This document shows positions 20,905 to 55,400 of a stretch of DNA of 64,000 nucleotides, in pieces. The DNA lies in contig CBDUTA010000001.1 of NCBI GenBank assembly GCA_965369785.1, positions 4,779 through 68,778 of the forward strand, given 5' to 3'. This stretch comes from an uncultured bacterium (lineage in GTDB: Bacteria; Acidobacteriota; UBA6911; RPQK01; JADFOI01). Position numbers and translations under genes: made by a program. The notes under the pieces are model-generated. The model was not told where the DNA came from. It saw only the letters and a list, made by a program, of their open reading frames with translations, and made no database searches. Position 1 is the first letter of the stretch. Every line of letters starts with the position of its first letter.

Positions 20905-20934
20905 GACTATCTCCTCGATACCCTTTTGCCTGAT

Positions 20935-36625: not shown

Positions 36626-36643
36626 GCATAATCCCGGCTAAGG
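36626..36643. repeat. copy of the CATAATCC(C/G)GGCT motif overlapping the HAO-like gene stop
   Basis: GCATAATCCCGGCTAAGG, compared with CATAATCCGGGCTAGCC at 38071 and CATAATCCGGGCTGGCC at 28110. Confidence 0.35.
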
Positions 36644-38038: not shown

Positions 38039-38059
38039 GCCCAATACCTCCTATTTTTA

Positions 38060-38090
38060 GCCCGGACTATTCATAATCCGGGCTAGCCGG
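38060..38090. repeat. palindromic hairpin AGCCCGGActattcataaTCCGGGCT between cyt b and the HAO-like gene
   Basis: An 8-bp stem with a 10-nt loop, directly upstream of the HAO-like Shine-Dalgarno. It shares 14 nt with the motifs at 28110 and 36626. Confidence 0.4.
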
Positions 38091-39177
38091 GAGCCATGGC
38101 TTCCCAGAGGGTCAAGACGATCAAAAAGAATACAGCCGCAACTCCCACCCACACACTGATCTCACTTGCCGGATTGCGACGGCGAATCCTGGCGTCGATA
38201 AAAGGCCAGATGAGGGCCGTGAGGCCCATGAGTCCAATGGTGATCACGGCAACTTGCAGTCCGGTGAGCTGAAGCCAGCGGAAGGTCCAGTAAAAGTACC
38301 ACTCTGGTTTGATGTGAGAGGGGGTCTGAAGGGGATTGGCTTTCTCACCCAGCTCGGCCGGGAAGATGAGGGCCAGGCAAGTCAGCAAAATAGTCAGACT
38401 CAGGGCGAGGATCAGTTCAGTCAGAAAATGATCGGGATACAAGGGAAAAGTCTTCGATTCAGAATCGCTCTGTAAATCTGCTTTGAACTCGAAGGCAGTG
38501 ACCTCATGGAGTCGTACCAGCAAGATGTGACCGAAAATGAGCAGGGTGATGACGGTAGGCAGGATTCCAATGTGAAGGATAAAGAATCGAGTCAGCGTAT
38601 TGTCGCCGATGGTTTCTCCACCTCGTAACAATCGAGCCAACTGGTCTCCAATCAGGGGGACCGCTTCAGTCAAATTTCCGGCAACAGTAATTCCCCAGTA
38701 GCTGAGTTGCTCATAGAGGAGTGAATAGCCGGTGAATCCAAAAAATAGAGTCACCCCGACCAATCCGATCCCGATCATCCAATTGAGTTCCCGGGGCTTT
38801 CGGTAGGCACCGGTAAAGAAGACCCGCATCATATGCAGGATGACCGCCACAATCATCAGATTGCTGGACCACTTATGGATACTGCGTACAAACCAGCCGT
38901 AGGGCACCATCGTGCCGATTCTCTGAACACTTTCATAGGCCTCATTTGGGGCGGGCACATAGTAAAGGGTCAGAAGAATCCCAGTCACAACCTGAACGAT
39001 AAAAAGGTAGCCAGCCGTCCCTCCCAGGCACCACCACCAACTCTTCAGGTGGTGAGGCACCGGTTCGCTGGTAAAGTGGCGTAAAGAATCCAGATCTACG
39101 GGGATTCGTTCCTGCACCCATTCCAGGCGTCCTGTTGATGACGAGGATGAGGATTGAGAAGGCAGGGAACGACTCAT
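38083..39177 (-). CDS. cytochrome b of a Rieske/cytochrome b (bc1/b6f-type) complex
   Basis: The heme-ligand His pairs in helices B and D (HKWSSNLMIVAVILHMMRVFFTGAYRKPRELNWMIG ... FFILHIGILP...HILLVRLHE) and the PEWYFYW quinol-site motif. Confidence 0.85.
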   Translation of the reverse strand: MSRSLPSQSSSSSSTGRLEWVQERIPVDLDSLRHFTSEPVPHHLKSWWWCLGGTAGYLFIVQVVTGILLTLYYVPAPNEAYESVQRIGTMVPYGWFVRSIHKWSSNLMIVAVILHMMRVFFTGAYRKPRELNWMIGIGLVGVTLFFGFTGYSLLYEQLSYWGITVAGNLTEAVPLIGDQLARLLRGGETIGDNTLTRFFILHIGILPTVITLLIFGHILLVRLHEVTAFEFKADLQSDSESKTFPLYPDHFLTELILALSLTILLTCLALIFPAELGEKANPLQTPSHIKPEWYFYWTFRWLQLTGLQVAVITIGLMGLTALIWPFIDARIRRRNPASEISVWVGVAAVFFLIVLTLWEAMAPG

Positions 39178-39653
39178 AAACTCACAATCTCCTCCACTTC
39201 CAGAAAGAGATTGTTTCCGATCCTGCGAATGGGGAACTTTGTCAGGTTCTTTCCTTCAGCCGCCGGTGGGCCCTCTGTGGCTACTCCGTTGTTGTCAAAA
39301 ACCCCTTGATGACAGGGACAAAAGAATCGCTGGTTGCGAATTTCCCAGTGCACCTTGCAACCCAGGTGCGGACAGGTGTTGGAGAGGGCAACCACCTCTC
39401 CGCCTATGTTCGTGACCAAAGCCTGGTTCCCGTCAGGCAACGTGTAGGTCTTACTTTCTCCCGTCAGAAGGTCAGCCGCTGGGGCCAGAAAGATGGTGCG
39501 CAGACGACGCTGACCGCGCAGGGGATACACGTATCGGAGTGCAAACAGAAGGCCTGTCCCGTAGCTGAGAACTAACCCACCCCACATGAACAGGTTAATC
39601 AGTGCCTGACGGCGACTCTGTTTCCTGGTTGATCCTGGTTTCGTCGTTTCCAC
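39174..39653 (-). CDS. Rieske [2Fe-2S] iron-sulfur protein
   Basis: Box I CPHLGCKV and box II CPCHQGVF, an N-terminal TM anchor, and a stop that overlaps the cyt b start (ATGA). Confidence 0.8.
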   Translation of the reverse strand: METTKPGSTRKQSRRQALINLFMWGGLVLSYGTGLLFALRYVYPLRGQRRLRTIFLAPAADLLTGESKTYTLPDGNQALVTNIGGEVVALSNTCPHLGCKVHWEIRNQRFFCPCHQGVFDNNGVATEGPPAAEGKNLTKFPIRRIGNNLFLEVEEIVSL

Positions 39654-39792: not shown

Positions 39793-40689
39793 TTATTCGT
39801 TGTCGAGTTTGAAGGTGAGAACCGGGCAAGAGGCCGTTCGAACGAGTCGCTCCGTGGTGCTTCCCAATAACATCCGGTCCAGACCGGAGAGGCCGTGGGT
39901 ACCCATGACAATGAGGTCCACCTGGTTTGCACGGGCAAACTTACTGATTTCTGCGTGAGCTTTTCCGTCTCCGATCTCGACGTGAACATCGAGGTCTCGG
40001 AGACCCTCCTCTCCCAGAGTCGATCTCAGCGACTCTTTGGCTTCTTCAGCGATTTGAGGCAGCTCCCGGGCCATCGACTCCCTCCATTTGAGGTAAAAAG
40101 CAGGGTGCACTTCCTGTTCAACGACGTAAAGGACTTGAAGATGAGCGCTATACCGGGCTGCCATAGCCCTTGCTTTACGCGCCGCCTTCTTCGAGTGCTC
40201 CGAAAAATCGAAAGCCACCAGAATTTCTTGGTAATCAGGATTATTTCGATACTCCTTCCGATCCTGGGCCACAGTAAGGACGGGACAGGAAGCATGTCGC
40301 ACCACCCGTTCAGCCACACTGCCTACAAAGAACTGCGCCAAGGCCGAATGCCCATGAGTGCCCATCACCGTCAGGTCGATCCCCTTCTCTTCAATGAAGT
40401 CGAGTATACCCCTGGCTGGAGCGACTTCCCGGACGACTTCAGTCGTGACTTTCTGAGAGGCTTCCGTCGCCTGGGAAATTTCACCCAGGCTCTTTTCGAT
40501 ATACCCCCTGAAATTTCCCTCATCTAACTGTTGATACTCCGGTGCACTGGGATCATCACTGTACGGAGTAGCCACATGGAGTATGTTGATGTCCGCTTCG
40601 TATTTCTGGGCGATCTTCAGAGCATGCGGTAACGCAGTGTTGGCGGCTCGAGAGAAGTCAGTAGGAAAAAGGACCTTTCTTATTCCCAT
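39793..40689 (-). CDS. tandem-domain universal stress protein
   Basis: Two USP halves (VLFPTDFSRAA... and ILVAFDFSEHS...LIVMGTHGLSGLDRMLLGSTTERLV). Confidence 0.8.
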   Translation of the reverse strand: MGIRKVLFPTDFSRAANTALPHALKIAQKYEADINILHVATPYSDDPSAPEYQQLDEGNFRGYIEKSLGEISQATEASQKVTTEVVREVAPARGILDFIEEKGIDLTVMGTHGHSALAQFFVGSVAERVVRHASCPVLTVAQDRKEYRNNPDYQEILVAFDFSEHSKKAARKARAMAARYSAHLQVLYVVEQEVHPAFYLKWRESMARELPQIAEEAKESLRSTLGEEGLRDLDVHVEIGDGKAHAEISKFARANQVDLIVMGTHGLSGLDRMLLGSTTERLVRTASCPVLTFKLDNE

Positions 40690-40976: not shown

Positions 40977-42989
40977 ATGCGGAGGACTTCTCCAACTTAT
41001 CCCAGATGGAGAAAAGGAGAGCTCATCTCAGTATTGACTGGATTGTTTATATTCCGTCTGCTTCTTGTTTCGCGGGCATTTGCCCTAGGTCTGGGCGTAC
41101 TCAGCACTGCTTCGGCCATGTCCCTCGCAGCACCCCAGGAAATGCCTTGTGACGGGTGTCATGAAGTGTCAGCAAGTTCCCTTCATCGTGACTTTGGATG
41201 CATCAGTTGCCACTCGAATGTCCAGGATTTTCCCCATCAAGATTCTGTACTTGAAGAACTCTCCGGCAGCGAACTCTGTTCTCAATGCCATGACTCTACT
41301 GCCAGTCTGCTCAAAGAGAGCGTTCATGGGGAAATACTGGATTGTCAGACTTGCCACGGCGAAGCACACTCCCTCTTGCCGGTCACCGACCTGGCTTCTC
41401 CGGTATCCCCCTTAAGACAGATTCAATTGTGCAGCCAATGCCATGATACTCCGGAAGTAGTAGACGACTACTTAGGCAGTGTTCACGGTCGGGCGTTGGT
41501 CGTTTCAGGCCTCATCATCGCTCCGTCATGCACCGATTGTCACGGCAGTCATGCCATCTTCCCGCCTTCTGATACTCGAGCCACCGTTTCCCACAACCAG
41601 GCACCCCAAACATGCGGAACCTGTCACGCCTATATACTCGATGTCTGGGTCAAGGAAAGCGCTCACGGTCAAGCTTGGCAACAGAGTGAGGAGGGACCCG
41701 GATGCCCCACTTGTCACGGTTCCCATCAAGTGATGGAACCGCGCAACGCCGACCAACGACTGCAGTTTCCGGAAAGCTGCGGAGGCTGTCACGAAGATCG
41801 CTACACGACCTATCGCGACAGTTTTCATGGCCAGGTAACAGATCTGGGATTCCAGACTGCAGCCATCTGCTCGGATTGCCATACGCCCCATGCCAACCTT
41901 CCCGCCGATAGTCCACAATCGTCAGTCCACCCGACCCATCTCAAGGACACTTGTGGGAAATGCCACGCAGAGGTAAGCCCAGGGTTCCTAACCTTCGACC
42001 CTCACCTTGACCCCTCTGACCCCACGGGGAATCGAGAAGTCTACTTCGTGTGGCTTTTCATGACCGGTCTTTTGATCTCTGTGTTCGGGTTTTTTGGACT
42101 CCATGATCTGCTCTGGTTCCAGCGCTCACTGGTAGCCTATTTCAAAGGAGAGTTCGCCAGTGTCAGAAAGACAAATGGACCTTACATTAAGCGTTTTACT
42201 TCCGTTGATGTATGGGTTCATGTTGCTATTGTGGTGAGTTTCTTGATCCTTGCCATGACCGGTTTGCCCTTGAAATTCCATTTTGCCGATTGGGCAAAGA
42301 ATCTCACTGGTGCAATGGGTGGGGTTGGTTTGACTCGTTCCTTACACCGCTTTGCCGCTGTGGTGACCTTTGGCTATGCTTTTTTTCATTTGGGCCACCT
42401 TGTTCAGAAGATCGTTTTCAGAAAAGACTTTGGCCTGCTGTGGGGATGGCGCTCCATGGTGCCCAGGCCAAAGGATTTCGTGGACGTCTGGCACAATCTC
42501 CGCTACTTTCTCTATCTTGGACCGCGTCCCCGTTTGGATCGTTGGACTTATTGGGAAAAGTTTGATTACTTTGCGGTTTTCTGGGGGATCATCATCATCG
42601 GAGTCTCCGGATTAGCTCTTTCGTTTCCCAGCTTTTTCACCCGCTTCTTCCCGGGATGGTTTCTGAACGCGGCTTTCCTTATTCACAGTGATGAAGCGCT
42701 CCTGGCAGTGGGCTTTATCTTCATGTTTCACTTCTTCCACACTCATCTTCGTCCTGAGAGCTTCCCATTGGATCCCGTCATCTTCACCGGCCGGGTACCT
42801 CTCGAAAGGTTCAAAGAGGAAAGGCCCGTCGAATACCAGCGTTTGGTGCAGACCGGTCGCTTGGAAACTCTCATCGTCGGTCCTCCTTCCCGTAAGCAGA
42901 TTCGAATGGCTGGCATTTTCGGTTTTGCTGCCATGGCGGTGGGCATAGGATTGATGCTGGCCATTCTTTGGAGCTTCTTTGCTTATTAG
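40977..42989 (+). CDS. CbcL-like inner-membrane cytochrome: 11-heme c-type domain fused to a HydC/FdnI-type diheme cytochrome b
   Basis: 11 CxxCH motifs in residues about 55-330, then 4-5 TM helices with conserved His (GLHDLLWF, WVHVAIVV, SLHRFAAV, MFHFFHTHL), as in the formate dehydrogenase/hydrogenase gamma subunit. Confidence 0.7.
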   Translation: MRRTSPTYPRWRKGELISVLTGLFIFRLLLVSRAFALGLGVLSTASAMSLAAPQEMPCDGCHEVSASSLHRDFGCISCHSNVQDFPHQDSVLEELSGSELCSQCHDSTASLLKESVHGEILDCQTCHGEAHSLLPVTDLASPVSPLRQIQLCSQCHDTPEVVDDYLGSVHGRALVVSGLIIAPSCTDCHGSHAIFPPSDTRATVSHNQAPQTCGTCHAYILDVWVKESAHGQAWQQSEEGPGCPTCHGSHQVMEPRNADQRLQFPESCGGCHEDRYTTYRDSFHGQVTDLGFQTAAICSDCHTPHANLPADSPQSSVHPTHLKDTCGKCHAEVSPGFLTFDPHLDPSDPTGNREVYFVWLFMTGLLISVFGFFGLHDLLWFQRSLVAYFKGEFASVRKTNGPYIKRFTSVDVWVHVAIVVSFLILAMTGLPLKFHFADWAKNLTGAMGGVGLTRSLHRFAAVVTFGYAFFHLGHLVQKIVFRKDFGLLWGWRSMVPRPKDFVDVWHNLRYFLYLGPRPRLDRWTYWEKFDYFAVFWGIIIIGVSGLALSFPSFFTRFFPGWFLNAAFLIHSDEALLAVGFIFMFHFFHTHLRPESFPLDPVIFTGRVPLERFKEERPVEYQRLVQTGRLETLIVGPPSRKQIRMAGIFGFAAMAVGIGLMLAILWSFFAY

Positions 42990-43055: not shown

Positions 43056-44765
43056 TCATGGGTGGCACATTGCACAAAGCTCGCGGTTCAAGGAAACAGG
43101 TTGTCCAGCCGCAAGTTGATGACAGTCGGCACAGGCATTTCCCATCCCCAGGTGCAGTGAGTGAGAGAATTCTCCTCGAAAAGACTGCACCACACCCTCC
43201 ATCATTCCAGAATGGCATTGCTGGCAATCCAGCTCAGTCTCCTGGTGGTGACAATTTGCGCAGCCTTCGGCTTCAAAGCGAACCACTTCTCCCACAGGTT
43301 TTTCTTCATGGGGCCGATGGCAAGCCTGGCATTGGAGTTCCTGCTCCACGGCGTGTATTGAATGGCTGAACTCTCGACCGAATTGAGGTCCGCTCTGTCC
43401 TTCGATGCCCTGGTGACACTGGATACAACTCGATTCGTAGGGGACTTCCGGCCAGGGTATGGTGAGTTCAGAGCGACCGATTTGCCCTCGTGCCTGATTG
43501 AGAAATTCATGGGCCCGAGACAGTAAGGCAAAGGAATACCTGACGTTGTGCACACCTTTGCCTTCCTCCACCAGAGTAAGGTTGTGGTACGCATCCGCCA
43601 GTGCTTGTGGTTCAGCACCTGAGAAAAGAGAATCGGTCTCTTGCAGCTGTCGTTTCAAAAGCCCTGTGCGCTGGCTTACCCCTTCTTTCCAGCGCAAGTA
43701 AGTCGCACGATAACGGGCGCCGTGGCAGGACATGCAGGAGACCTCTGTTGCCCGTGCCGTCTCTTTCTCCTGCCCGGGTATCTGAAAATGACAACCCTCG
43801 CAAGACACTCCGGCAGTAAACATGGAGGCAGGCATGGGAGGCACTCCCCGTCCCCCTATGCCGGCATAGAGGTCACGCTGAGGGGAATGTCCGGCCCGGT
43901 GGCAGCTTTCACAGTCTGTTTGAGCTGCTTCCAGGTTCGGCGGTTGGCCATGCTGGATCTCGAGGTGGCAGTCCATGCAATTCACCTTATGTTCTGTCAC
44001 GTGCATCTGGTGCATGAGAGCCGTATTCTCATACTGAGCCAGTCGTGGGGGATCGTTGTGACAGGTAAAGCAACGCTCTTGAGGAACGTTTCCGCCTGAT
44101 CCGGTTAACTCGTGAGAATGGCACCAGCTACAATCCATGTCGAAGCGTTTCACATCACCGTGGTCAAACGTCATCATTTCCTTCTGGACCACCATTTCAG
44201 GGATAGCGTGGCACAGGGTGCAGCGGCTAGTGCTTTCTCCGGGTCCTTCTCCTTTGAAATGGCACAGGATACAGGTTGAAGTCGTCACCGTAATGTGCAG
44301 ACCCTGGACGATCTGGCTGTGACAGGAAGTGCAGCGTAGTTTTATGCCGTGACGCAGTTCCGTGAGATGGGGCCGATGATCAAACACAACATCAGCGAAC
44401 AGTTCTCGTCCAGAAAGAAGTCGTCTCTGGTGGCAGCGAAGACAGGCCGCGTCGTCGATTTCAGTCCATGGGTTAGTTCCGTAGGTGCCGGTGAAATAGG
44501 AGGCAACCATGGAAAGCGCTTCCCATTTCTTGCGGATTTCGTTGGTCACTCCAGGGGGGATGTGGCAATCCACGCAAGGCACATCGCTGTGACTCGAGTT
44601 TTGCCACGAGTCAAAATAGGGCTTCATCACGTGGCAGGTTCCACAGAACTGGGGCTGGCTGGAGGCCTCCGCGCCCAGAACAATGGCAATCACCCCTAGA
44701 CCTAGAAGGAGGCTTGAGGAGTAGATCACCCAACGAATCCTGGCAGACGGGATGAATCGTTTCAT
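43056..44765 (-). CDS. membrane-anchored 18-heme c-type cytochrome with an N-terminal NapC/NirT/NrfH-type quinol-dehydrogenase module
   Basis: A TM helix, then FCGTCHVMKPYFDSWQNSSHSDVPCVDCHI (the NrfH/NapC signature), and 18 CxxCH in total (the last is CAMCHP at the C-terminus). The start is at the Met whose ATG overlaps the upstream stop (ATGA). Confidence 0.75.
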   Translation of the reverse strand: MKRFIPSARIRWVIYSSSLLLGLGVIAIVLGAEASSQPQFCGTCHVMKPYFDSWQNSSHSDVPCVDCHIPPGVTNEIRKKWEALSMVASYFTGTYGTNPWTEIDDAACLRCHQRRLLSGRELFADVVFDHRPHLTELRHGIKLRCTSCHSQIVQGLHITVTTSTCILCHFKGEGPGESTSRCTLCHAIPEMVVQKEMMTFDHGDVKRFDMDCSWCHSHELTGSGGNVPQERCFTCHNDPPRLAQYENTALMHQMHVTEHKVNCMDCHLEIQHGQPPNLEAAQTDCESCHRAGHSPQRDLYAGIGGRGVPPMPASMFTAGVSCEGCHFQIPGQEKETARATEVSCMSCHGARYRATYLRWKEGVSQRTGLLKRQLQETDSLFSGAEPQALADAYHNLTLVEEGKGVHNVRYSFALLSRAHEFLNQARGQIGRSELTIPWPEVPYESSCIQCHQGIEGQSGPQFGREFSHSIHAVEQELQCQACHRPHEEKPVGEVVRFEAEGCANCHHQETELDCQQCHSGMMEGVVQSFRGEFSHSLHLGMGNACADCHQLAAGQPVSLNRELCAMCHP

Positions 44766-45931
44766 GTTCTTTCTCTTAAAACCTTTTGCCGAAAACGCAA
44801 GAGAATCCAGATGGTTAACACGACGTAAAACCAAAAAATCACCAGACCCAGACGACGAATCCTTCGTTCTCCCAACTTCCCCTGGATCTCTCCCTGGACC
44901 TCCTCTCCCAAAGAGCGAGCGGTCCGGGTGAAATTTTCCATCGCTTCGAGCGACACGGTGTGCACGGCAGGTTCGGCTTCCAACAGGTACGTTCGGGCCT
45001 CTTGCAAACGAGCCTGGTAGTCTTCAACGTAAATCGGAATTTCCTCCGCTTCCGCGATCAGTTGGCGAGCTTGATCTATCTCCTCTTGGGCACGCTGGAA
45101 CAGAACCTCCATTTTTTCTCCCAGGGTGACCTGCGACGAATCCTGTCCATGACAACCGGCACACAACAGCGCCAAATCTTCCCGATCCGCCACCTGTACA
45201 GAGTGGTTTCCGTGACATGAGATACACTCGGGCAATCCAGCCTCGAGCATTCCGGCCAGATGCGGACCTGCCTGGAAGGCTGAACGGGCGGCCGTGTGAC
45301 AGCTCCCGCAGACCTTGTCCACGTCTCCCACACCAGGCGGTGCCGCCCCGTGGATCCCGTGGCAGCGGGCACATTCCGGGGCGTTGTCGTTCCCCCTCTC
45401 GAGTAGCTCTTCTGCATGTATGCTTTGCAGGTAGTCGTGGTATGGGGCTGTGTCTTTCCCGTAGTGGGCCATCAGTTCCGTATCTCCATGGCAGCGCCCG
45501 CAGGTATCCGGTATGTTCTCAACAAACACCCGACTTTCCGGGTTTTCTGGAGAAAGGATATTGTGTGTGCCGTGACAATCCGTGCACACCGCAATCCGGG
45601 AATCGCCATCGGCCAACCGCATTCCATGCTGGCTAATTTGGTAAAGCGCATACTGGTCGGTGGGCAGATTGTAGGGACGCATGCGCTGAGGATCCGAATG
45701 ACACTCAGCACAGAATCGAGGAACATCCCGTCTAGAGATGGTGCCTCGAAAACTCCCCCTGTGGGCCGCCTCTGTGGACACCGTGTTGGGGTTGCCGCCG
45801 TGACAATCTGTACAGCTGGTAGACTCTTGAGCATGAATGGAGGATTGGTAAAGAGCACGCACGTCGGGGTGGCACAAACCGCATTGTTCGCTCTGCATGG
45901 GAACCACAAGAATCAGCAGTAGAAGGATCAC
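44762..45931 (-). CDS. nonaheme c-type cytochrome with a C-terminal membrane anchor
   Basis: 9 CxxCH motifs, a short N-terminal signal, a C-terminal hydrophobic helix (LGLVIFWFYVVLTIWILL), and a GTG start 4 nt after the cyt b stop. Confidence 0.75.
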   Translation of the reverse strand: MILLLLILVVPMQSEQCGLCHPDVRALYQSSIHAQESTSCTDCHGGNPNTVSTEAAHRGSFRGTISRRDVPRFCAECHSDPQRMRPYNLPTDQYALYQISQHGMRLADGDSRIAVCTDCHGTHNILSPENPESRVFVENIPDTCGRCHGDTELMAHYGKDTAPYHDYLQSIHAEELLERGNDNAPECARCHGIHGAAPPGVGDVDKVCGSCHTAARSAFQAGPHLAGMLEAGLPECISCHGNHSVQVADREDLALLCAGCHGQDSSQVTLGEKMEVLFQRAQEEIDQARQLIAEAEEIPIYVEDYQARLQEARTYLLEAEPAVHTVSLEAMENFTRTARSLGEEVQGEIQGKLGERRIRRLGLVIFWFYVVLTIWILLRFRQKVLRERT

Positions 45932-45935
45932 CCTG

Positions 45936-47072
45936 TCAGACCCTCACATCCAGGATCAGGCCATAATAAGAAAAAAAGAGCCACAGCAAGAAGACTGCGA
46001 AGCCGAAGCCGAGTGCGATTTTCCTTTTTCGCTGAGGTGCCCCGGACCGAAAATCGAGGGCAGGCAAGAAAATAAACACCAGCAGCACAATCATCAGGAG
46101 ACTACTCCTGACCCAAAGAGGAATCCACGTCGGAAAGAGTTCGATGAAACCGTAGGGTGCCAGCAAATACCAAGGCATTCGGGTTCCCACGGCCGTTTGG
46201 TAGGGATTGACAGGCTCCCCAAAGGGCGTGGCCCAGAGAACTGATAACGTTACTAAAACCCCAAAAATCGCCAAGGTGAGGATCAAGATACTATAGAGAT
46301 GGGCCAGGTAAGCGCCCGATCCTCCCTTCTGTTCCTCTCCCGGGATCTCACTGAGACCTACACGCCGGATCCCCGAAAAGTTGATATAGAGAACACACCA
46401 AAAGACTAAAGGCAGAATCGCAACGTGCAAGAAGTAGAAGCGAGTCAGCATGACGTTCTCCCCCGGCAACCCACCCACCAAGAAGGCGGAAAGCGCGCCG
46501 ATCACCGGTATGGAGAAAAGCACCTCAAGAGCTCGTATGCTGGACCAGTAGGATTGGTTGGTCGACGCTAACAGACGGCCGGAGAATTCAAGATGAGTTG
46601 CCACCAGAAAGAGTACGGCTCCGGCGACCCAAATCAATTCTCTGGGAGACCGGTAGAGTCCACGAAAGTAGAAACGGATCAAACGAATAATGAGGAGCAT
46701 CAACAAGAGTTGCGCACCCCAATTGTGCATTTGATGTACAAACCAGCCAAAGGGAATATCTCTGACAATAGTGAGGACACTTGGATAGGCTTCTTGGGCC
46801 GTCGGACGATAGTAGAAGGCCAGAAGCCCTCCTGTGATCAACTCGATGACAAACAGAATAAGAGTCAGCAGGCCCAGCACTCGAGGCCACCGTGAATAAG
46901 AAGGTAGGGGCTTTGCCAAAGCCTCTTTCAGGGCCTCCTTGAGCGGCTTGCTAGTATCTACTTCTGTATAGAAAAGGCCAGAGATAGTGAGCAGGGAGAA
47001 GATCTCTGTCAGATTGATACGCTGCTCCAACCACCTGACAACCTGGCTTGTCCTGCTTGGGCGTTGTGCCAT
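45936..47072 (-). CDS. cytochrome b of a second Rieske/cytochrome b complex
   Basis: WFVHQMHNWGAQLLLMLLIIRLIRFYFRGLY and FYFLHVAILP His-containing helices, and a PWYLL motif. The start is at MAQRPS, which has an AGGAAGG Shine-Dalgarno in the gap after the Rieske stop. Confidence 0.8.
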   Translation of the reverse strand: MAQRPSRTSQVVRWLEQRINLTEIFSLLTISGLFYTEVDTSKPLKEALKEALAKPLPSYSRWPRVLGLLTLILFVIELITGGLLAFYYRPTAQEAYPSVLTIVRDIPFGWFVHQMHNWGAQLLLMLLIIRLIRFYFRGLYRSPRELIWVAGAVLFLVATHLEFSGRLLASTNQSYWSSIRALEVLFSIPVIGALSAFLVGGLPGENVMLTRFYFLHVAILPLVFWCVLYINFSGIRRVGLSEIPGEEQKGGSGAYLAHLYSILILTLAIFGVLVTLSVLWATPFGEPVNPYQTAVGTRMPWYLLAPYGFIELFPTWIPLWVRSSLLMIVLLVFIFLPALDFRSGAPQRKRKIALGFGFAVFLLWLFFSYYGLILDVRV

Positions 47073-47097
47073 CACACCTACCCTTCCTGGAACTTTC

Positions 47098-47547
47098 TCA
47101 CATGTGAACCAAGATCTCCCCACGCCGGATCTCAGTTGGATAGCTGGTCAGTGGCTTGGTGGGCAAACCCGACATCACCGAACCCGTGGAGCTGAACACT
47201 CCATTGTGGCAGGGGCAAACCAGGTTTCGATTCTGGCTGTTCCAGTTCAACACGCAGCGAAAGTGAGTACACAAGGCGGACACTGCGACAAGTTCATCAT
47301 TGCTCAACCGGACAAGATAGAGAGGAGCACTCCCATGACGGATCAGGCGAGCTTCCCCCGCCTTTAGAGATTCTGCGTCTCCGGCCTGAACAATATTCTG
47401 CCCTGCCCAACGAGTTGAAGGAGGAACCTTCAAAAAACTGGCTACTACACCCACCAGACCCACACCCCACAAAGACAAGAAAAAGAGGGTCAGCGACTGG
47501 AAAAGAGTTCTACGCTCTGTATCCATGGCTTCGACCTTTTCTGTCAT
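47098..47547 (-). CDS. Rieske [2Fe-2S] iron-sulfur protein (second copy)
   Basis: CTHFRC ... CPCHNGVF boxes and an N-terminal TM/Tat-like region (RRTLFQSLTLFFLSLWGV). Confidence 0.8.
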   Translation of the reverse strand: MTEKVEAMDTERRTLFQSLTLFFLSLWGVGLVGVVASFLKVPPSTRWAGQNIVQAGDAESLKAGEARLIRHGSAPLYLVRLSNDELVAVSALCTHFRCVLNWNSQNRNLVCPCHNGVFSSTGSVMSGLPTKPLTSYPTEIRRGEILVHM

Positions 47548-47734
47548 CGTCCCAATCCCAATTCCTTCAAGTCCCTTTTCAGGGCCTATTATGCAGTAAA
47601 AAGGGCAACTCAGATACCCATCAAAAGATTCTCCGGAAAACAGAAGGGGGCAGACAGGTCTCAGCCAAGAGGGAAACTTTTCGCTTTACCACCTCTACAC
47701 GCAGAGCTGACCATCGTGGGCCAAGGCAGTGCAA

Positions 47735-48097
47735 TCATTCCTCAATCTTAGAAAGCCTGCGGGTATATTCAGCTACCGCCTTGAGATCCTCATCGCTGAT
47801 CTTGCCCTCATACTTCGGCATCTTACCCAGGCCTTCACTCAAGGTCTTCACCAATTCGGCAACGGAAGTTCCCTGCTTCCACGACCCGGCAGTCAGGTCG
47901 GGAGTCTTCATCATCTTTCCTGCTTTTGTGTCTGCCTTGCCATCATCTCCATGACACATGAGACACTTGGAATCGTAGACTTTCTTTCCGGGCGAGTCTT
48001 CTTCGGCAAAAACCAGTGAGAGGGCCGCCAGTGTAAAAAAACCGATCACCAGGATGAAACTTGAGTAAAGGGCCTTTCTCTTTGTTGGGTCAAACAT
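47735..48097 (-). CDS. monoheme class I c-type cytochrome (c552/c6-like)
   Basis: A signal peptide, a single CLMCH and a distal Met (GKMPKY). The start is at the ATG after an AAGGAGGGA Shine-Dalgarno. Confidence 0.65.
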   Translation of the reverse strand: MFDPTKRKALYSSFILVIGFFTLAALSLVFAEEDSPGKKVYDSKCLMCHGDDGKADTKAGKMMKTPDLTAGSWKQGTSVAELVKTLSEGLGKMPKYEGKISDEDLKAVAEYTRRLSKIEE

Positions 48098-48146
48098 ACA
48101 TCCCTCCTTTTTCAATCTGTGGTGTCCGTTGTAAGGCCGTCATCCC

Positions 48147-48668
48147 TTACACCGGAAGACCCACCTGGGCCAGGAGTTCGTCGGCCAGGTTACCGTAGTG
48201 TTGGTGGCACTGCCCCGAGAGCTCCACTTCGTCGAACTTGACGCGGAGACCTTCCAATTCGGCTTTCGAAAGCACACCGCGTCCCATCGGAAACAGAACG
48301 TTGTCCTCCTTCTGAATATGGCTGCGCAAAAGCTCTACATAGTTGAGGGATTCGCGGCGCAGGCCGGCCAAATCACCCCCTTTGATCAGCTCTCGCATAG
48401 ACTGGACATGGCCACGACCGATCTCGTGTTCCTCGCACATACACCCGATCGGGCCGGCCTCGCGAGGAATTCCCTTTTCTTCCAGGACGGGAAAGAGGCG
48501 CTCCTCTTCCTTTCCATGGTGACACTTGTCGGCAAAATTGGCAATGAAATCCACCGCCTGCTCGTAAAACTCAAGGGGCAGCTCTTGTTCGGCAGCAGCG
48601 CTGAGAGCTGTGAGGACCTTTTCAATGATGCGGTGCTCATCCATGAGTTCCTGGATGGGGTCTAGCAT
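48147..48668 (-). CDS. hemerythrin-like (HHE cation-binding) domain protein
   Basis: The H-HxxxE / H-xxxE patterns (MDEHRIIEKVL, CHHGKEEERLFP, CEEHEIGRGHV, LRSHIQKEDNVLFP). Confidence 0.7.
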   Translation of the reverse strand: MLDPIQELMDEHRIIEKVLTALSAAAEQELPLEFYEQAVDFIANFADKCHHGKEEERLFPVLEEKGIPREAGPIGCMCEEHEIGRGHVQSMRELIKGGDLAGLRRESLNYVELLRSHIQKEDNVLFPMGRGVLSKAELEGLRVKFDEVELSGQCHQHYGNLADELLAQVGLPV

Positions 48669-49505: not shown

Positions 49506-49590
49506 GTGCGGTTCCTTCAGATGGGTCTCGACACACGATTCGCATCCGGGATTATAATCACAGGAGGGGGCCAAATTGGGAGGATCATCC

Positions 49591-50904
49591 ATGAAAAAAA
49601 GCAGCGGAGTCCTGGTGATGTTTCTGCAGATGTTCTTGACAGGGAGTCTCTATGCGGAACAACTCCAGACCGTTGATGACGCCGATTTCTATGCCGGGGA
49701 CCCCCATTTGCAAAGCTATATTGAGGCAGCTTTGGCGGGCAATCCGGCTCTTGCGGAAGCGTTGGCTGGCTATCGGGGTGCGTTACAGAAGGTTCCTCAA
49801 GTGACCTCTCTTCCGGATCCCATGCTGAGCTTTACCCAGTTCCTTCGCAGCGTGGAAACACGCGTGGGGCCCCAATTGAACACACTGATGCTCACTCAGA
49901 AGTTTCCCTGGTTTGGAAAGCTCGATCTCAAGGGAAAAATCGCCTTTAAGGAAGCGGCAGCACAGCATCAGGCCTACCGCGCACGGGAAAGAGACATCAT
50001 TGGCCAGGTCAAACGGGCCTTTTACAATCTGGGCTACGTGGATCGGGCAGTGGAGATCAGTCAGGAAGATCAGTTACTACTGGAGCATTACGAGGAACTG
50101 GCTCAGATTCGCTACAGCACGGGTCAAGGTCTGCAGCAGGCGGTGATCAAAATCCAGGCGGAGATCACTAAAATCATCAATCGCCTGAAAATTCTGGATC
50201 AACAGAGAGTGTCCCTGGTGGCCCGGTTGAATACCTTAATGAATCGTCCCCCGGAAGAGTCTTTACCCACGGTGGGACAACTCGTCTTGCCCCAGATGAC
50301 CTTGAATTTGGAGGAGCTTTACCATCTGGGTGAGCGAAACCGGCAAGAACTCAAAGTAGTCATGGCTCGAATCGAGAAAAGCGAACAGTCCATCGATCTG
50401 GCCAGAAAAGACTACTGGCCCAATGTGACTTTGAGTGCCGGTATGATCAATGTCGGGGGGCGGAACGACCCTGCCGGCCTCCTGCTGCCTCCCCCCGACA
50501 ATGGGAAAAATGCTTACAACTTTTCCGTAGGGATCAATATTCCCATTCGTCGAGCCAAATACAACGCGGGCGTCCTTGAGGCCACTGAAGGACTCATCGC
50601 CAACCGTAAACAATACCTCAATATCCGTAACGAGATGGAGTTCTCGATCCGGGATCAATCCATCCGCATCGAGACGCTCCAGGAACAGGTTAAGCTGTTT
50701 GAAGAGGTGTTGATTCCTCAAGCGGAAGAGGCTTTGCGCTCCACCGAGTCCGCTTATGGAACGGGCCAGCTGGGCGCATTGGACTTGCTGGACAGTGAGC
50801 GCGTGTTGCTGGAGTTGCGTCTGATCAACGCACGCTATTACGCGGACTATCTGGGGGCTCTGGCCAATTTAGAGCGGGCCATTGGAACCAAGTTTCCAAG
50901 ATGA
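49591..50904 (+). CDS. TolC-family outer-membrane efflux protein (CusC-like)
   Basis: A signal peptide and a two-repeat alpha-helical/beta-barrel OEP architecture. The start is at MKKSSG, which has a GGGAGGA Shine-Dalgarno. Confidence 0.8.
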   Translation: MKKSSGVLVMFLQMFLTGSLYAEQLQTVDDADFYAGDPHLQSYIEAALAGNPALAEALAGYRGALQKVPQVTSLPDPMLSFTQFLRSVETRVGPQLNTLMLTQKFPWFGKLDLKGKIAFKEAAAQHQAYRARERDIIGQVKRAFYNLGYVDRAVEISQEDQLLLEHYEELAQIRYSTGQGLQQAVIKIQAEITKIINRLKILDQQRVSLVARLNTLMNRPPEESLPTVGQLVLPQMTLNLEELYHLGERNRQELKVVMARIEKSEQSIDLARKDYWPNVTLSAGMINVGGRNDPAGLLLPPPDNGKNAYNFSVGINIPIRRAKYNAGVLEATEGLIANRKQYLNIRNEMEFSIRDQSIRIETLQEQVKLFEEVLIPQAEEALRSTESAYGTGQLGALDLLDSERVLLELRLINARYYADYLGALANLERAIGTKFPR

Positions 50905-50915
50905 TGAGGTGACGC

Positions 50916-52412
50916 ATGAAAAAAGCCATTTTTTTCAGTTTATTCTTTTTTCTGATTGGGGTTTCGGCAACGGCCTTTTTCTTGGTGAATCCCTTTCATT
51001 GGGAGTGGGTTCACCGCCTGCATGAAAGGGTCCTGAGTGGCGTTGAGGGTTCAGCAGGCACTGCGGGAGAGGAGAAACACCAGCTCTGGACTTGTGGCAT
51101 GCACCCCGGGGTGATTCAGGAGGAGCCGGGCAGTTGTCCCATCTGTGGGATGACCCTGGTCCCTGTGAAGGATTCGGCCAGCGGCACAACCAGCTCTTCC
51201 ATGCCCCAAGAAGAGAGAAAGATCAAATATTGGCAAGCCCCGATGGATCCCACTTTCATTTCTGAAAAACCGGGCAAGTCCCCTATGGGAATGGATTTGA
51301 TTCCCGTCTATGAAGACGAAGCCGAAGCGGTGCCCGCAGGGACCGTGCGGATCGACCCCGTCTTTGTCCAGAACATGGGAGTCCAGTCTATCGAGGTCAA
51401 ACGCACGGACATTCCTTTTATCATCCGCACCGTCGGCAGTCTGAACTACAACGAGCGCCAGATCTATTGGGTGAACACCAAATATGAGGGGTGGATCGAG
51501 AAAGCCTATGTGAACTACGTGGGCGAAGCTGTGAAAGAAGGTCAAGAACTGTTCGAGATTTACAGCCCTGCGTTGGTCACGACCCAAAAGGAATACCTGC
51601 AGGCCATTCATTACGCGGAGCGACTGGCCGGCAGTGATTATCCGGATATTGCCGAACGGGCCGGTTCTCTGGTGGAGTCGAGCCGTGAGCGTCTTCGGTA
51701 CTGGGACATCACGGACGCGCAGATTCGGGACCTGGAGAAGTCGGGTGAAATTCGGCGGACTCTCACGATGGTCTCACCGGTCTCCGGTTTAGTGGTGGGG
51801 AAGATGGATCAGGCTCTGGAGGGCATGTACCTGAAACCAGGTATGAATATTTACAAGATCGCGGATCTATCGACCATCTGGGTGGAAGCGGAAATTTTTG
51901 AAAATCAGATTCCCTGGCTGAAGGTGGGGCAAAGGGCCGTGATCGAAATCCCTTACCAGCCCGGAAAACGCTACTCGGGGACCATCCGTTATATTTACCC
52001 CTTCTTAAATAACAAAACCAGGACACTCAAGGTCTCTATCGAACTGCCCAATCCGGGACAACAGCTTAGGGCCCAGATGTATGCCAACGTCACCTTTAAT
52101 GTCCCTTCGGCCCGAGGGGTGGTGGCGGTCCCCGAAGATGCGGTCATCCACAGTGGAGAGCGCAACATCGTGGTACTGGATCAGGGAAATGGGACATTTC
52201 AGGTCACAGAGGTGATTCTAGGTGTCAATGGAGACGGTCGTTGGGAAGTGAAGGAAGGTCTGGAAGAGGGAGATCGCGTGGTGATTTCCTCGCAGTTCCT
52301 GATTGATTCAGAGAGCAACCTGAAGGAAGCTATCCGCAAGATCATTTCCGAGAGAGAGGGCACTCAGGACCCGGATGATGCCGCCTTACCCATGCCTGCC
52401 TCTCAAGATTGA
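50916..52412 (+). CDS. cusB: efflux RND periplasmic adaptor (CusB-like) with an N-terminal CxxC...CxxCGM metal-binding domain
   Basis: CGMHPGVIQEEPGSCPICGM near the N-terminus, then membrane-fusion-protein beta-barrel and lipoyl regions. Confidence 0.8.
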   Translation: MKKAIFFSLFFFLIGVSATAFFLVNPFHWEWVHRLHERVLSGVEGSAGTAGEEKHQLWTCGMHPGVIQEEPGSCPICGMTLVPVKDSASGTTSSSMPQEERKIKYWQAPMDPTFISEKPGKSPMGMDLIPVYEDEAEAVPAGTVRIDPVFVQNMGVQSIEVKRTDIPFIIRTVGSLNYNERQIYWVNTKYEGWIEKAYVNYVGEAVKEGQELFEIYSPALVTTQKEYLQAIHYAERLAGSDYPDIAERAGSLVESSRERLRYWDITDAQIRDLEKSGEIRRTLTMVSPVSGLVVGKMDQALEGMYLKPGMNIYKIADLSTIWVEAEIFENQIPWLKVGQRAVIEIPYQPGKRYSGTIRYIYPFLNNKTRTLKVSIELPNPGQQLRAQMYANVTFNVPSARGVVAVPEDAVIHSGERNIVVLDQGNGTFQVTEVILGVNGDGRWEVKEGLEEGDRVVISSQFLIDSESNLKEAIRKIISEREGTQDPDDAALPMPASQD

Positions 52413-52430
52413 TCGAACTGGACAAAAGCT

Positions 52431-55400
52431 ATGCTGGAAAAAATAATCCACTGGTCGCTTCACAACAGGTTCTTCGTGATCCTGGCTTGCGTCTTTGCCA
52501 TTTTTTGGGGCCTCTTTGCCCTGCAACAAACGCCGCTTGATGCCCTTCCCGACTTGTCCGATGTGCAGGTGATCGTCTTCACCGACTTTCCGGGGCAGTC
52601 TCCTCAGGTCGTGGAGGATCAGGTCACCTATCCCATCACCACCCAGATGTTGGCTGTACCCTACGCCAAGATCGTGCGTGGCTACTCCTTTTTTGGCTTT
52701 TCCTTCGTCTACGTCATTTTCGAGGACGGCACCGACATGTACTGGGCACGAAGTCGCGTCTTGGAGTCTTTGAACTATGTCTCGGGCCAACTACCGAACG
52801 GGGTCACGCCGGCCTTGGGTCCTGACGCGACGGGCGTGGGATGGGCCTTCATGTACGCTTTGAAGTCGGATCAGCGAAATCTGGCCGATCTGCGGAGCAT
52901 ACAGGATTGGTTTTTGAAGTATGAACTGACCTCCGTGAATGGAGTTTCTGAAGTCGCCAGTATCGGCGGCTTTGTCAATCAGTATCAGATTACGGTTGAT
53001 CCCAACAAGCTGCGTGCCTACAACATTTCCATCTCCAAAATCCGAATGGCGGTTCAGCGCAGCAACAACGATGTGGGAGGGCGGATGCTGGAGATTGCGG
53101 AAACCGAATTCATGGTCCGTGGCCTCGGTTACATCAAGAACGTTGAGGATATCAAACAGATTGCCCTCGGAGCGGACGCCAATGGGACGCCTGTTCTTCT
53201 CAAGGACATCGCCACGGTACAAAGGGGGCCCGATATCCGCCGGGGGTTGGCCGAGCTCAATGGGGAAGGGGAGGTGGTGGGAGGAATCGTGATCGTTCGA
53301 TTCGGGGCCAATGCCTACCAGGTGATTCAGGATGTGAAGGAGAAGCTGGCTCAGCTGAAACAGGGCCTACCCGAAGATGTGGAAATCATGGCCGTCTACG
53401 ACCGTTCGGCATTGATCGAGCGCTCTGTGGCCACCCTCCAGGAAAAGTTGCTTGAAGAGGGCCTCATCGTGGCCCTGGTGTGCATCCTCTTTTTGTTACA
53501 TTTTCGCTCCGCAATGGTGGCTATCACTACCCTGCCGCTAGCAATTCTGATGGCCGTTACTGTGATGTACTACCAGGGGATTAACGCCAACATTATGTCC
53601 CTGGGCGGCATTGCCATTGCCATCGGAGCCATGGTGGATGCTGCCATCATCATGATCGAAAACGCCCACAAACACCTGGAACGCGATCAGGGCAAAAAGG
53701 AGCACTGGAAGATCATCGCTGAGGCCGCCACGGAGGTGGGCCCCACGCTTTTTTACGCCTTGCTGGTCATTACCGTGTCCTTCGTTCCCGTCTTTACCCT
53801 GGAGGCCCAGGAAGGAAGGCTTTTCAAACCGCTGGCCTTCACCAAAACCTATTCCATGGCCGCGGCCTCTCTCCTGGCCATAACCATCGTACCGGTGTTG
53901 ATGGGTTACTGGATTCGCGGAAAGATTCGGCCTGAAGGGCGTAATCCCATCAGCCGGTTTTTGACCTGGATCTACGATCCGATCCTGCATCTTCTGCTGC
54001 GCTGGAAATGGTCGGTCTTGCTAACGGCGTTTCTGGTGGTCGTGATCACCTGGTTTCCTTTCTCCCAGCTCGGATCGGAGTTTATGCCACCCCTGTGGGA
54101 AGGGGATCTTCTTTATATGCCCACTACGTTACCTGGAGTTTCCGTGACCAAGGCGCGGGAAATCTTACAGCAGACCGACAAGATCATCGCCACATTCCCG
54201 GAAGTTCGTCACGTCTTCGGAAAAGTTGGGCGAGCGGATACCGCTACCGATCCAGCGCCCTTGAGCATGATCGAGTCCACTATCATGCTTAAGCCTGAAG
54301 AGGAATGGCGGCCCGGTATGACTCCCGACAAGTTGATCACCGAGATGAATCAGGCCATCCAGTTTCCTGGACTGACCAACGCCTGGACCATGCCCATTAA
54401 AACCCGCATCGACATGCTCTCCACCGGAATCAAGACCCCTGTCGGGATTAAGCTTTCCGGCACGGACCTGACAATCCTGGAAGACTTGGGAAAGGAAGTA
54501 GAAGCAGTGATACGCGAGGTTCCTGGGACGCTTTCCGTCTATGCGGAGCGCGTTATGGGAGGCAATTATCTTGATTTCCAGATCAACCGCGCGGAGATTG
54601 CCCGCTATGCCCTCACGGTGGGCGATGTACAGGACGTGATCCAGACGGCAATCGGAGGAATGAACATCACCACCACTATCGAAGGGCTGGAGCGGTACCC
54701 TGTTAACTTACGCTACAGCCGTGAACTGCGAGACAACTTACCGGCACTGCGTCAGATCCTGGTGCCCACTCCCTCCGGACAGCAGATCCCCTTAGGATAC
54801 CTGGCCGATATCAACTTCAAGAAAGGTCCTCCTGCTATCAAAACCGAAGCCTCTCGGCCCAACGCCTGGATTTACGTGGATATCTCCGGTATCGATATAG
54901 GAACCTACGTCAAGATGGCGCAAAGAGCAGTAGCCGAGCAAGTGACGGTTCCCGTCGGTTATAACATCGCCTGGAGCGGGCAGTACGAGTACATGGTGCG
55001 TGCCCAGGAACGTATGGCGTACGTGGTTCCCATGACCTTCATGATCATTTTTGTGATTATTTTTCTCAATACCAGATCGGCCTTTGAGACCCTCATTGTG
55101 TTGCTGTCAGTTCCCGCTTCACTGGTGGGAGCTTTTTGGCTGCTTTACCTGTTGGATTACAACCTGAGCATCGCCGTGTGGGTGGGATTGATCGCCCTGG
55201 CCGGGTTGGCCGCGGAAACCGGGGTGGTCATGCTGCTGTATTTGGACGTGGCTTACAAGGAAGCCGTGGAAAAGGGCCTGATGCGACACAGGAAAGACCT
55301 GGTGGATGCCATTTACCATGGTGCAGTCACCCGGCTGCGTCCCAAGATCATGACCGCCAGCGTGATCATGGGGGGCCTGATCCCCATCATGTGGAGCCAT

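Follow-up and report, generated by a model that had tools for sequence, protein, structure and literature searches.

A Rieske/cytochrome b gene unit with a nonahaem and an NrfH-headed 18-haem cytochrome in uncultured bacteria

Complexes built on a Rieske protein and a cytochrome b are taken to be defined by the Q cycle. Here we analyse a gene unit with such a core in 64,000 nucleotides of DNA from an uncultured acidobacterium (GenBank assembly GCA_965369785.1, contig CBDUTA010000001.1, positions 4,779 to 68,778), hereafter the window. The unit lies on the minus strand at 43056-47547 and is composed of four consecutive, closely spaced open reading frames (ORFs) for a Rieske protein, a cytochrome b and two multihaem cytochromes, one with 9 and the other with 18 haems. 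The cytochrome b has retained the ligands of haem bL and has lost those of haem bH.

In Geobacter, the gene cluster GSU2930-2937 (Cbc6/Ext) encodes a Rieske protein and a cytochrome b together with 2-, 10-, 12- and 5-haem cytochromes, and its function is uncharacterised (PMC2825233). The four-gene unit resembles this cluster in that a Rieske/cytochrome b core is encoded with several multihaem cytochromes. As described, the Geobacter cluster differs in its haem numbers, and neither an NrfH-type head nor a loss of bH ligands is reported for it (PMC2825233). Orthology to the Geobacter Ext proteins was tested for ExtP, ExtM, ExtN, ExtO, ExtQ and ExtS. It was rejected, the scores being below the NCBIfam cut-offs (148 against 290 bits for ExtP, 22 against 800 for ExtM and 26 against 100 for ExtS); the matches to ExtM and ExtS are weak and partial.

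In anammox bacteria, the complexes encoded by Kuste4569-4574 and Kustd1480-1485 contain a b6-like cytochrome b and a hexa- or octahaem cytochrome c that replaces cytochrome f. A non-Q-cycle bifurcation at the Qo site has been proposed for them (PMC12954380). These complexes keep haems bP, bN and cN, and the low-potential electron is proposed to cross the membrane to an NAD(P) oxidoreductase subunit (PMC12954380). In contrast, the four-gene unit has no N-side haem ligands, and no NAD(P) oxidoreductase subunit (with flavin adenine dinucleotide and iron-sulfur centres) was found within it or directly beside it. Neither an NrfH-type head nor a loss of bH ligands appears in the anammox descriptions (PMC12954380). 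The same holds for the description of Caldithrix, where a Rieske/cytochrome b pair adjoins epsilon-Hao (PMC5317091). A natural loss of a bH histidine ligand, read as absence of the haem, is known in the cytochrome b of Pyrobaculum (PMC4122944). That protein is archaeal and belongs to another clade, and no NrfH-type multihaem partner is described for it (PMC4122944).

With the bc1 and b6f complexes, the unit shares a Rieske protein that has a twin-arginine signal and the CTHxxC and CPCHxG boxes, the cytochrome b fold, the bL ligands, the Qo loop and a C-terminally anchored c subunit. Unlike these complexes, it has neither bH ligands nor the haem ci cysteine, it carries MPWY or PPWY in the Qo loop, its c subunit has nine haems and an 18-haem subunit with an NrfH-type head is added. 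This 18-haem subunit shares with NrfH, NapC, CymA and ImcH a single N-terminal transmembrane helix, four close CxxCH motifs and a CxxCHxM motif at haem 1, and it has a conserved lysine that may be the counterpart of NrfH Lys82. Unlike NrfH (4 haems) and ImcH (7 haems), it has 14 haems beyond the head. Its gene is located inside a Rieske/cytochrome b operon, not beside the gene of a reductase such as NrfA.

No account of the four-gene unit was found in the open full-text literature, and none of an NrfH-headed cytochrome with 18 haems or of Rieske/cytochrome b complexes without bH in bacteria; an earlier mention in subscription-journal reviews is possible. A preprint on multihaem cytochromes from peat mentions neither Rieske proteins nor cytochrome b.

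Layout and conservation of the four-gene unit

The four genes are the following.

47098-47547, minus strand: Rieske [2Fe-2S] subunit, 149 residues (Pfam Rieske, 48.6 bits)
45936-47072, minus strand: cytochrome b, 378 residues from the ATG (Pfam Cytochrome_B, 114 bits); the ORF reaches a GTG at 47123
44762-45931, minus strand: nonahaem cytochrome c, 389 residues, 9 CxxCH motifs
43056-44765, minus strand: 18-haem cytochrome c, 569 residues from the ATG, 18 CxxCH motifs; the ORF spans 43056-44834

The stop codon of the Rieske gene is separated from the cytochrome b ATG by 25 nucleotides, and that of the cytochrome b gene from the 9-haem gene by 4 nucleotides. The stop codon of the 9-haem gene and the start codon of the 18-haem gene overlap as ATGA (AACATGAAAC at 44762-44765). 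A previous reading of the DNA, made from the letters alone (the sequence-only reading), had described four packed co-directional genes with this overlap, 9 and 18 haems and an 18-haem protein ending in CAMCHP. The coordinates, the exact CxxCH counts and the translation agree with each of these statements. It had also called the operon the second of its kind in the window, and a first Rieske/cytochrome b pair is indeed present at 38083-39653. In shuffled sequences of the same composition, the mean number of CxxCH motifs was 0.04 for the 9-haem protein and 0.14 for the 18-haem protein, with a maximum of 2.

The 18-haem gene most likely starts at the ATG at 44765, which gives a length common to most orthologues. 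In a public gene call, apparently made on the same contig, this protein has 557 residues, which implies a GTG start 12 codons downstream, and cytochrome b has 379 residues; the protein collection accordingly lacks the exact sequences of 569 and 378 residues. For cytochrome b, the most likely start is the ATG at 47072. This codon is preceded by AGGAAGG, and the resulting 378 residues correspond to the length of the homologues, which span the full query. A scan for promoters and terminators in the 42.8-48.9 kb region gave counts that were not above those in shuffled sequence.

A search of a collection of 5.8 billion proteins with the 18-haem protein gave more than 1,700 matches, of which the best 120 are full-length (521-640 residues) and 52-86% identical to the query. 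An exhaustive HMMER scan of 1.84 billion cluster representatives retrieved 365 clusters at E <= 1e-30. In data containing one genome per species, 548 stretches encode relatives of this protein; the best 80 of these were analysed, together with metagenome contigs. All 80 are from metagenome-assembled genomes (MAGs) of uncultured lineages. According to the record titles, their hosts include Acidobacteriota (Polarisedimenticolia, Thermoanaerobaculia and Blastocatellia among them), Eisenbacteria, Latescibacterota, Binatia, WOR-3, Bipolaricaulota, Fraserbacteria and Fischerbacteria. The top match in the one-genome-per-species data is 61% identical and belongs to an Acidobacteriota MAG.

Using tblastn with the window proteins, the order Rieske, cytochrome b, 9-haem, 18-haem was found in essentially every locus with enough upstream sequence. 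Pfam-labelled gene calls on long contigs show the same order. Across the 80 species-representative genomes and the metagenome contigs, linkage of the four genes spans at least 10 uncultured phyla. The pairing of a NapC-type module with a Rieske/b core, which the sequence-only reading had singled out as unusual, is therefore a recurrent one. Overall, this quinol:multihaem cytochrome module based on Rieske and cytochrome b is conserved and widespread, and it is apparently uncharacterised.

The haem counts are conserved as well. Eighteen CxxCH motifs are found in 72 of the 78 orthologues of the 18-haem protein, which come from independent assemblies; orthologues with other counts are probably copies cut at contig ends. 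For the 9-haem protein, 54 of 58 orthologues have nine motifs. All 18 motifs of the larger protein are invariant in an alignment of 32 sequences. An alignment of 121 sequences shows invariance for 17 motifs and at least 90% conservation for the first. The sequence-only reading had itself pointed out that the 18-haem ORF could be two genes or a mis-assembly, or that its haem count could collapse on re-annotation. The ORF is uninterrupted and the count holds. In view of orthologues of the same length with the same 18 motifs in independent assemblies, both mis-assembly and gene fusion were rejected. Candidate fusions of Rieske and cytochrome b in Eisenbacteria were also rejected, as the extensions of these long ORFs contain no Rieske boxes and correspond to upstream read-through in another frame.

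Haem ligands of cytochrome b and features of its partners

The cytochrome b contains b6-like and subunit-IV-like parts in a single chain with about 8 transmembrane helices. Its AlphaFold2 model has a predicted local distance difference test score (pLDDT) of 91.5, and the best structural matches are cytochrome b chains of bc1 complexes (template modelling score ~0.7). Ligand sites were positioned by HMMER alignment to the cytochrome b6 structures 2zt9, 1vf5 and 6rqf; the Qo motif is listed with them.

46725-46727, minus strand: His133 codon, helix B ligand of haem bL (b6 His86)
46425-46427, minus strand: His233 codon, helix D ligand of haem bL (b6 His187)
46683-46685, minus strand: Arg147 codon, at the helix B ligand site of haem bH (b6 His100)
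46380-46382, minus strand: Asn248 codon, at the helix D ligand site of haem bH (b6 His202, R. capsulatus His212)
46167-46178, minus strand: Qo motif MPWY, replacing PEWY

Of the four axial histidines that characterise bc1 and b6f complexes, the bL pair is kept, whereas R147 and N248 stand in place of the bH pair. These positions were compared in the 121 closest homologues, which are 45-90% identical. His133 and His233 are present in all 121 and are the only invariant histidines of the protein. At the helix B site of bH, every one of these 121 has an arginine; among 62 orthologues taken from species-representative genomes, 47 do. The helix D site is more variable, with H in 63 homologues, N in 33, S in 14, G in 7, T in 3 and Y in 1, so that 58 of the 121 have no histidine there. 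The cysteine that binds haem ci (CxGG motif) is replaced by a valine. The Qo loop carries recognised variants of PEWY: MPWY in the window and mostly PPWY or APWY in the family (PPWY 84, APWY 13 and MPWY 8 among the 121 homologues). Such xPWY sequences are recognised natural patterns (PMC4122944).

The loss of ligands goes with the presence of the 18-haem gene. Of 61 cytochrome b genes followed by the 9- and 18-haem genes, 51 lack the helix B histidine. These loci contain 19 additional Rieske/cytochrome b units, of which 3 lack it and 16 retain all four histidines. The paralogue cytb1, encoded in the window, has WCLGG, four histidine ligands and PEWY. In R. capsulatus, the helix D substitution H212N is the standard laboratory knock-out of haem bH (PMC4807273), and the asparagine of the window cytochrome b is the same change. 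From these alignments, we infer a cytochrome b without haem bH, at the least for the lineage of the window.

Residues 1 to ~60 of cytochrome b form a family-specific N-terminal extension that is nearly invariant (W14, E16, R18, N20-L21-T22-E23, S26, G32 and others). Short helices are predicted in this region, which is absent from cytb1. According to the topology of cytochrome b, the extension should be cytoplasmic, near the vacated bH/Qi region.

The Rieske protein has an N-terminal twin-arginine motif (ERRTLF) and one transmembrane helix. It has two cluster boxes, CTHFRC at residue 93 and, at residue 111, CPCHNG. A set of 59 Rieske orthologues conserves the RR motif, CTHxxC and CPCHxGxF.

The 9-haem gene takes the position of the cytochrome c1/f gene, and its product is not the monohaem c1/f (or dihaem c) subunit expected in a bc1 or b6f complex. 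In this protein, a short N-terminal signal-like segment precedes the nine motifs, which are followed by a long helical region and, at residues ~360-378, by a C-terminal transmembrane anchor, a topology shared with cytochrome c1/f. All of its 18 cysteines are in CxxCH motifs. Its orthologues have clear signal peptides and conserve the C-terminal anchor, and nine conserved histidines outside the motifs are available for the nine haems.

The 18-haem protein is anchored by an N-terminal transmembrane helix (residues 13-31), and its 36 cysteines all belong to CxxCH motifs. Three regions can be recognised.

44256-44765, minus strand: NrfH/NapC-type head, residues 1 to ~170, with the transmembrane helix and haems 1-4 (PF03264)
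44625-44645 and 44526-44531, minus strand: CGTCHVM and K79-K80, both within the head
43446-44078, minus strand: OcwA-like middle region, residues ~230-440, with haems 8-12 and three long helices
43056-43427, minus strand: C-terminal hexahaem region (haems 13-18) of c7/c3 type, from weak profile matches

The head is matched by Pfam Cytochrom_NNT (PF03264) over residues 19-153, with 53 bits for a cut-off of 24.1. Its CxxCH motifs are at residues 41, 64, 108 and 145, counted from the ATG. The NrfH structure 2j7a_C was retrieved with an E-value of 5e-11 using the family profile and 5.5e-8 using the single sequence in phmmer. In 78 orthologues from all the phyla, C41, C44, H45, M47, H59, K79, K80, E82 and M86 are invariant, which indicates strong selection on the head. 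M47, which belongs to the CxxCHxM motif, is also invariant in 121 homologues. In NrfH, haem 1 on the quinol side has the methionine of this motif as its proximal ligand, and Lys82/83 is an essential residue (10.1101/2023.05.03.539133). An ungapped alignment places K80 on Lys82 of D. vulgaris NrfH, the residue numbered Lys83 in W. succinogenes; a HMMER alignment of low posterior probability is shifted by 2 residues.

Scores against the curated NCBIfam equivalogs are all under the cut-offs: 58.7 against 134.2 bits for NrfH (TIGR03153), 20.6 against 310.6 for NapC (TIGR02161) and about 30 against about 455-478 for TorC. Orthology to any of the three was thus rejected. The head had been described as a canonical NrfH/NapC module in the sequence-only reading. 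Family membership stands, but the TIGR03153 score does not allow the protein to be called an NrfH. Judged by its sequence, the head belongs to the NapC/NirT/NrfH family and is not an NrfH orthologue.

Beyond the head, c3/c7-like haems lead to the middle region, which matches the C-terminal haems and long helices of OcwA (6i5b_A; profile E-value 1.4e-21, Foldseek E-value 7e-4). Likeness to OcwA and NrfA-type proteins is confined to this one module of the larger protein. The hexahaem region gave weak profile matches to ActA of alternative complex III (6btm_A), to c7-like domains (8k9e_A) and to GSU1996 (3ouq_A). A fold search with the whole-chain model retrieved OcwA and a Carboxydothermus undecahaem cytochrome alone, each over a sub-region. 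In the AlphaFold2 model, pLDDT exceeds 90 for residues ~350-500 and is below 50 for most of residues 36-170. Because of this low confidence, the head is described here without any structural claim.

Seventeen conserved histidines outside the motifs, together with Met47, are available for the 18 haems, and no candidate for a catalytic haem with open coordination was found in the 18-haem protein. Both multihaem cytochromes look like pure wires. For the 18-haem protein, we infer a wire with one special haem rather than a catalyst.

Possible routes of the quinol electrons

A plausible reading of these data, which we put forward tentatively, is that the products of the four genes make up a single quinol:multihaem-cytochrome oxidoreductase in the membrane, which has a Rieske/cytochrome b core and works without haem bH and without a Q cycle. 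The conserved synteny and the translational coupling suggest that the four proteins assemble into a complex. In this complex, the Rieske protein and cytochrome b would form a Qo-type quinol site. The nonahaem cytochrome, held by its C-terminal helix, would stand in for cytochrome c1/f. The 18-haem cytochrome would be an additional subunit, anchored by its N-terminal helix and using its first four haems as an NrfH-type head. In the lineage of the window, the outer haem bL would be kept, and the inner haem bH and haem ci would be lost. With the N-side haems lost, no electron could cross to a Qi site and therefore no Q cycle could operate. As far as the ligand positions tell, the textbook Q cycle is probably out of reach for the unit.

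One electron of the quinol would pass from the Rieske cluster to the 9-haem protein and then to high-potential carriers, for which the neighbouring monohaem cytochrome c is a candidate. If the Q cycle is impossible, the bL electron would therefore have to exit on the periplasmic side, most likely to haem 1 of the NrfH-like head. From there, two routes can be envisaged. The electron could pass through the 18 haems to a partner of low potential in the periplasm or outside the cell, which would make the enzyme a bifurcating one with two outlets (route A). Alternatively, it could re-enter the quinone pool at the NrfH-type quinone pocket (route B). The same device could also run in reverse and take up electrons into the quinone pool.

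A periplasmic-side outlet via the NrfH-like head appears more likely than an extra quinol dehydrogenase placed beside a normal bc complex, because the bH ligands and the haem ci cysteine are missing, and with them the usual transmembrane outlet. The sequence-only reading, which had not noted this loss, had suggested a bifurcating or very long haem wire; the missing ligands put that hypothesis on a more concrete footing. A more specific version would have both quinol electrons freed periplasmically into two multihaem chains of different potential, Rieske/9-haem on the one hand and bL/NrfH-like head/18-haem on the other. The unit would then be a bifurcating or confurcating module, which we see as speculative and somewhat unlikely.

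If this is true, reduction of a poor acceptor outside the cytoplasm would be paid for by a good one, in a device widespread among uncultured Acidobacteriota, Eisenbacteria and other phyla. A broad bacterial clade that keeps Qo, Rieske and bL and drops the N-side haems, in association with 27 c-type haems and an NrfH-type module, would represent a second use of Qo chemistry. It would also offer a natural system to follow the fate of the low-potential electron after the b-haem chain has been cut, so far addressed solely with laboratory knock-outs. The hosts are abundant uncultured lineages of soil, sediment and groundwater, whose redox dealings with metals, humics and external partners are little known. 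An evolutionary survey of cytochrome b took the four haem ligands as invariable and dropped sequences in which any one was missing (PMC4122944). A clade such as the bH-less one would therefore be filtered out.

Several points weigh against a single complex of this kind. Ten of 61 units, about one in six, retain the four histidines yet carry the 18-haem gene; in the per-locus list, they belong to Bipolaricaulota, Binatia, Fraserbacteria and one MAG labelled delta proteobacterium. Because such units also carry the gene, the 18-haem protein is not simply a replacement for haem bH. For the same reason, its association with the core is probably older than the loss of the bH ligands. In addition, the helix D histidine persists in roughly half of the homologues deficient in bH, and a five-coordinate or otherwise ligated haem may be present there. 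Both the assembly of the four proteins and electron transfer from bL to a c-type haem are predictions from gene order and sequence. Proteins of the NapC/NrfH family work without a cytochrome b partner (10.1101/2023.05.03.539133). Finally, no convincing terminal reductase or outer-membrane conduit was found within the window.

The four-His units make serious another explanation, in which the operon encodes two separate co-expressed enzymes. In this case, a stand-alone quinol dehydrogenase and wire of CymA/ImcH type would be formed by the 18-haem protein, and the Rieske, cytochrome b and 9-haem proteins would form an enzyme of their own, both delivering electrons to a shared periplasmic cytochrome pool. 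CymA and ImcH, which are members of the NapC/NrfH family, oxidise menaquinol alone (10.1101/2023.05.03.539133), and the quinol-site residues of the head are invariant whatever the type of cytochrome b in the unit. Moreover, other genes resembling quinol oxidases in these loci (CbcL-like genes, a second Rieske/cytochrome b pair) suggest a toolbox of parallel entry points. However, a fixed gene order with ATGA coupling across at least 10 phyla goes beyond what loose co-regulation would lead one to expect, and a bH-less cytochrome b would be left without an outlet for its second electron. We consider two separate enzymes a real, if rather unlikely, possibility.

Another explanation keeps the architecture of the proposed complex and changes the direction of electron flow. 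Periplasmic or extracellular donors would reduce the 27 c haems, and a high-potential electron arriving through the Rieske cluster would join a low-potential one arriving through bL to reduce quinone at the Qo site. The xPWY form of the Qo motif (PPWY, APWY, MPWY) fits such a reverse operation. Kao and Hunte tied APWY-type motifs to a proposed reverse operation, and PPWY is present in the bc1 complex of Acidithiobacillus ferrooxidans (PMC4122944). NrfH-type sites are reversible in principle. On the other hand, none of the complexes of the APWY clade is characterised (PMC4122944), neither an iron-oxidation marker nor an outer-membrane conduit was found near the unit, and the hosts are MAG lineages of uncharacterised physiology. 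Electron uptake as the main function is in our opinion unlikely.

A conventional Q cycle, with a long haem wire as c subunits and an unconventionally ligated haem bH, is less probable still. Multihaem c subunits on Rieske/cytochrome b cores do have precedents, as in Geobacter GSU2930-2937 and in anammox bacteria (PMC2825233; PMC12954380). The overall fold of cytochrome b is intact and the helix D histidine is kept in 63 of 121 homologues. In R. capsulatus, a functional haem bH can be sustained by His-Lys ligation in a laboratory revertant, and H212K keeps a functional haem ligated in this way (PMC4807273). The residue at the helix B site is, however, an arginine and not a lysine in every one of the 121 homologues. 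We know of no case of arginine as an axial ligand of a haem b. The partner histidine has decayed in the other 58 homologues, including the window protein, where N248 is the knock-out substitution itself, no other histidine is conserved, and the haem ci cysteine is missing. Altogether, we regard an operating Q cycle as improbable.

The loss of two canonical haem ligands and of the haem ci cysteine might suggest a relic operon, whose cytochrome b would be a non-functional paralogue in decay. This is hardly credible: conservation is full-length over hundreds of proteins, both the bL ligands and the arginine that replaces a ligand are invariant, the Qo region is conserved, the fold is predicted with confidence and the Rieske boxes are intact.

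Genes around the unit

Three neighbouring genes encode redox-related proteins.

47735-48115, minus strand: monohaem class-I cytochrome c (Pfam), upstream of the unit
48147-48668, minus strand: hemerythrin-domain protein (Pfam), upstream of the unit
40977-42989, plus strand: CbcL-like protein, an 11-haem cytochrome c fused to a dihaem cytochrome b-type domain of about 5 transmembrane helices; convergent with the unit

Formate dehydrogenase and hydrogenase have a dihaem cytochrome b to which the membrane domain of the CbcL-like protein is related. The corresponding architecture of Geobacter CbcL has been described in a preprint (10.1101/2023.05.03.539133). Orthologues of this gene, which contain PF01292, are usually found directly upstream of the Rieske gene of the unit in related loci, the convergent arrangement being that of the window. 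In the closest relative, L084 (86% identity), the hemerythrin gene, the monohaem c gene, the four genes and then the CbcL-like gene are arranged as in the window. Monohaem c and/or hemerythrin genes are also located near the unit in L001 and L002. More generally, the frequent neighbours in related loci are a CbcL-type fusion, another Rieske/cytochrome b/multihaem operon, class-I cytochromes c with one haem and a hemerythrin gene. In the window, the interval that separates the Rieske gene from the cytochrome c gene contains a weak terminator-like hairpin at 47603-47619.

The first Rieske/cytochrome b operon of the window occupies 36638-39653 on the minus strand. It encodes a Rieske protein (39174-39653) and a canonical b6-type cytochrome b (38083-39177) that has PEWY, the haem-ci motif WCLGG and four histidine ligands. 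Its last gene is that of a HAO-like octahaem cytochrome (36638-38044) with 8 CxxCH motifs, which is matched by Pfam Multi-haem_cyto and weakly by hydrazine dehydrogenase. This arrangement recalls Caldithrix, where Rieske/cytochrome b is found beside epsilon-Hao, and anammox Kuste4574. In most related loci, a 9-haem-like protein takes the place of the HAO-like cytochrome.

Extra multihaem genes are located downstream of the unit in L046, L050, L055, L058, L072, L076, L079 and L082 (WOR-3, Bipolaricaulota, Fraserbacteria and related lineages). They include a further CbcL-like gene and a second gene of the 18-haem type, a distant paralogue with 31-37% identity, and make the cytochrome cluster a larger one.

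A tandem-domain universal stress protein is encoded between the two groups of cytochrome genes (39793-40689, minus strand), and a single-domain one is found at 30393-30848 on the minus strand. A CusCBA-like heavy-metal efflux system of the resistance-nodulation-division (RND) type occupies 49576-55535 on the plus strand. It is composed of an outer-membrane factor, a membrane-fusion protein with HMBD heavy-metal-binding domains and an AcrB-family pump. In L002, genes for a Cu-ATPase and a cupredoxin are located near the unit. Finally, a cytochrome c'-like gene is observed beside a gene for an OprB-family porin at 20389-22218 on the minus strand, about 20 kb from the unit.

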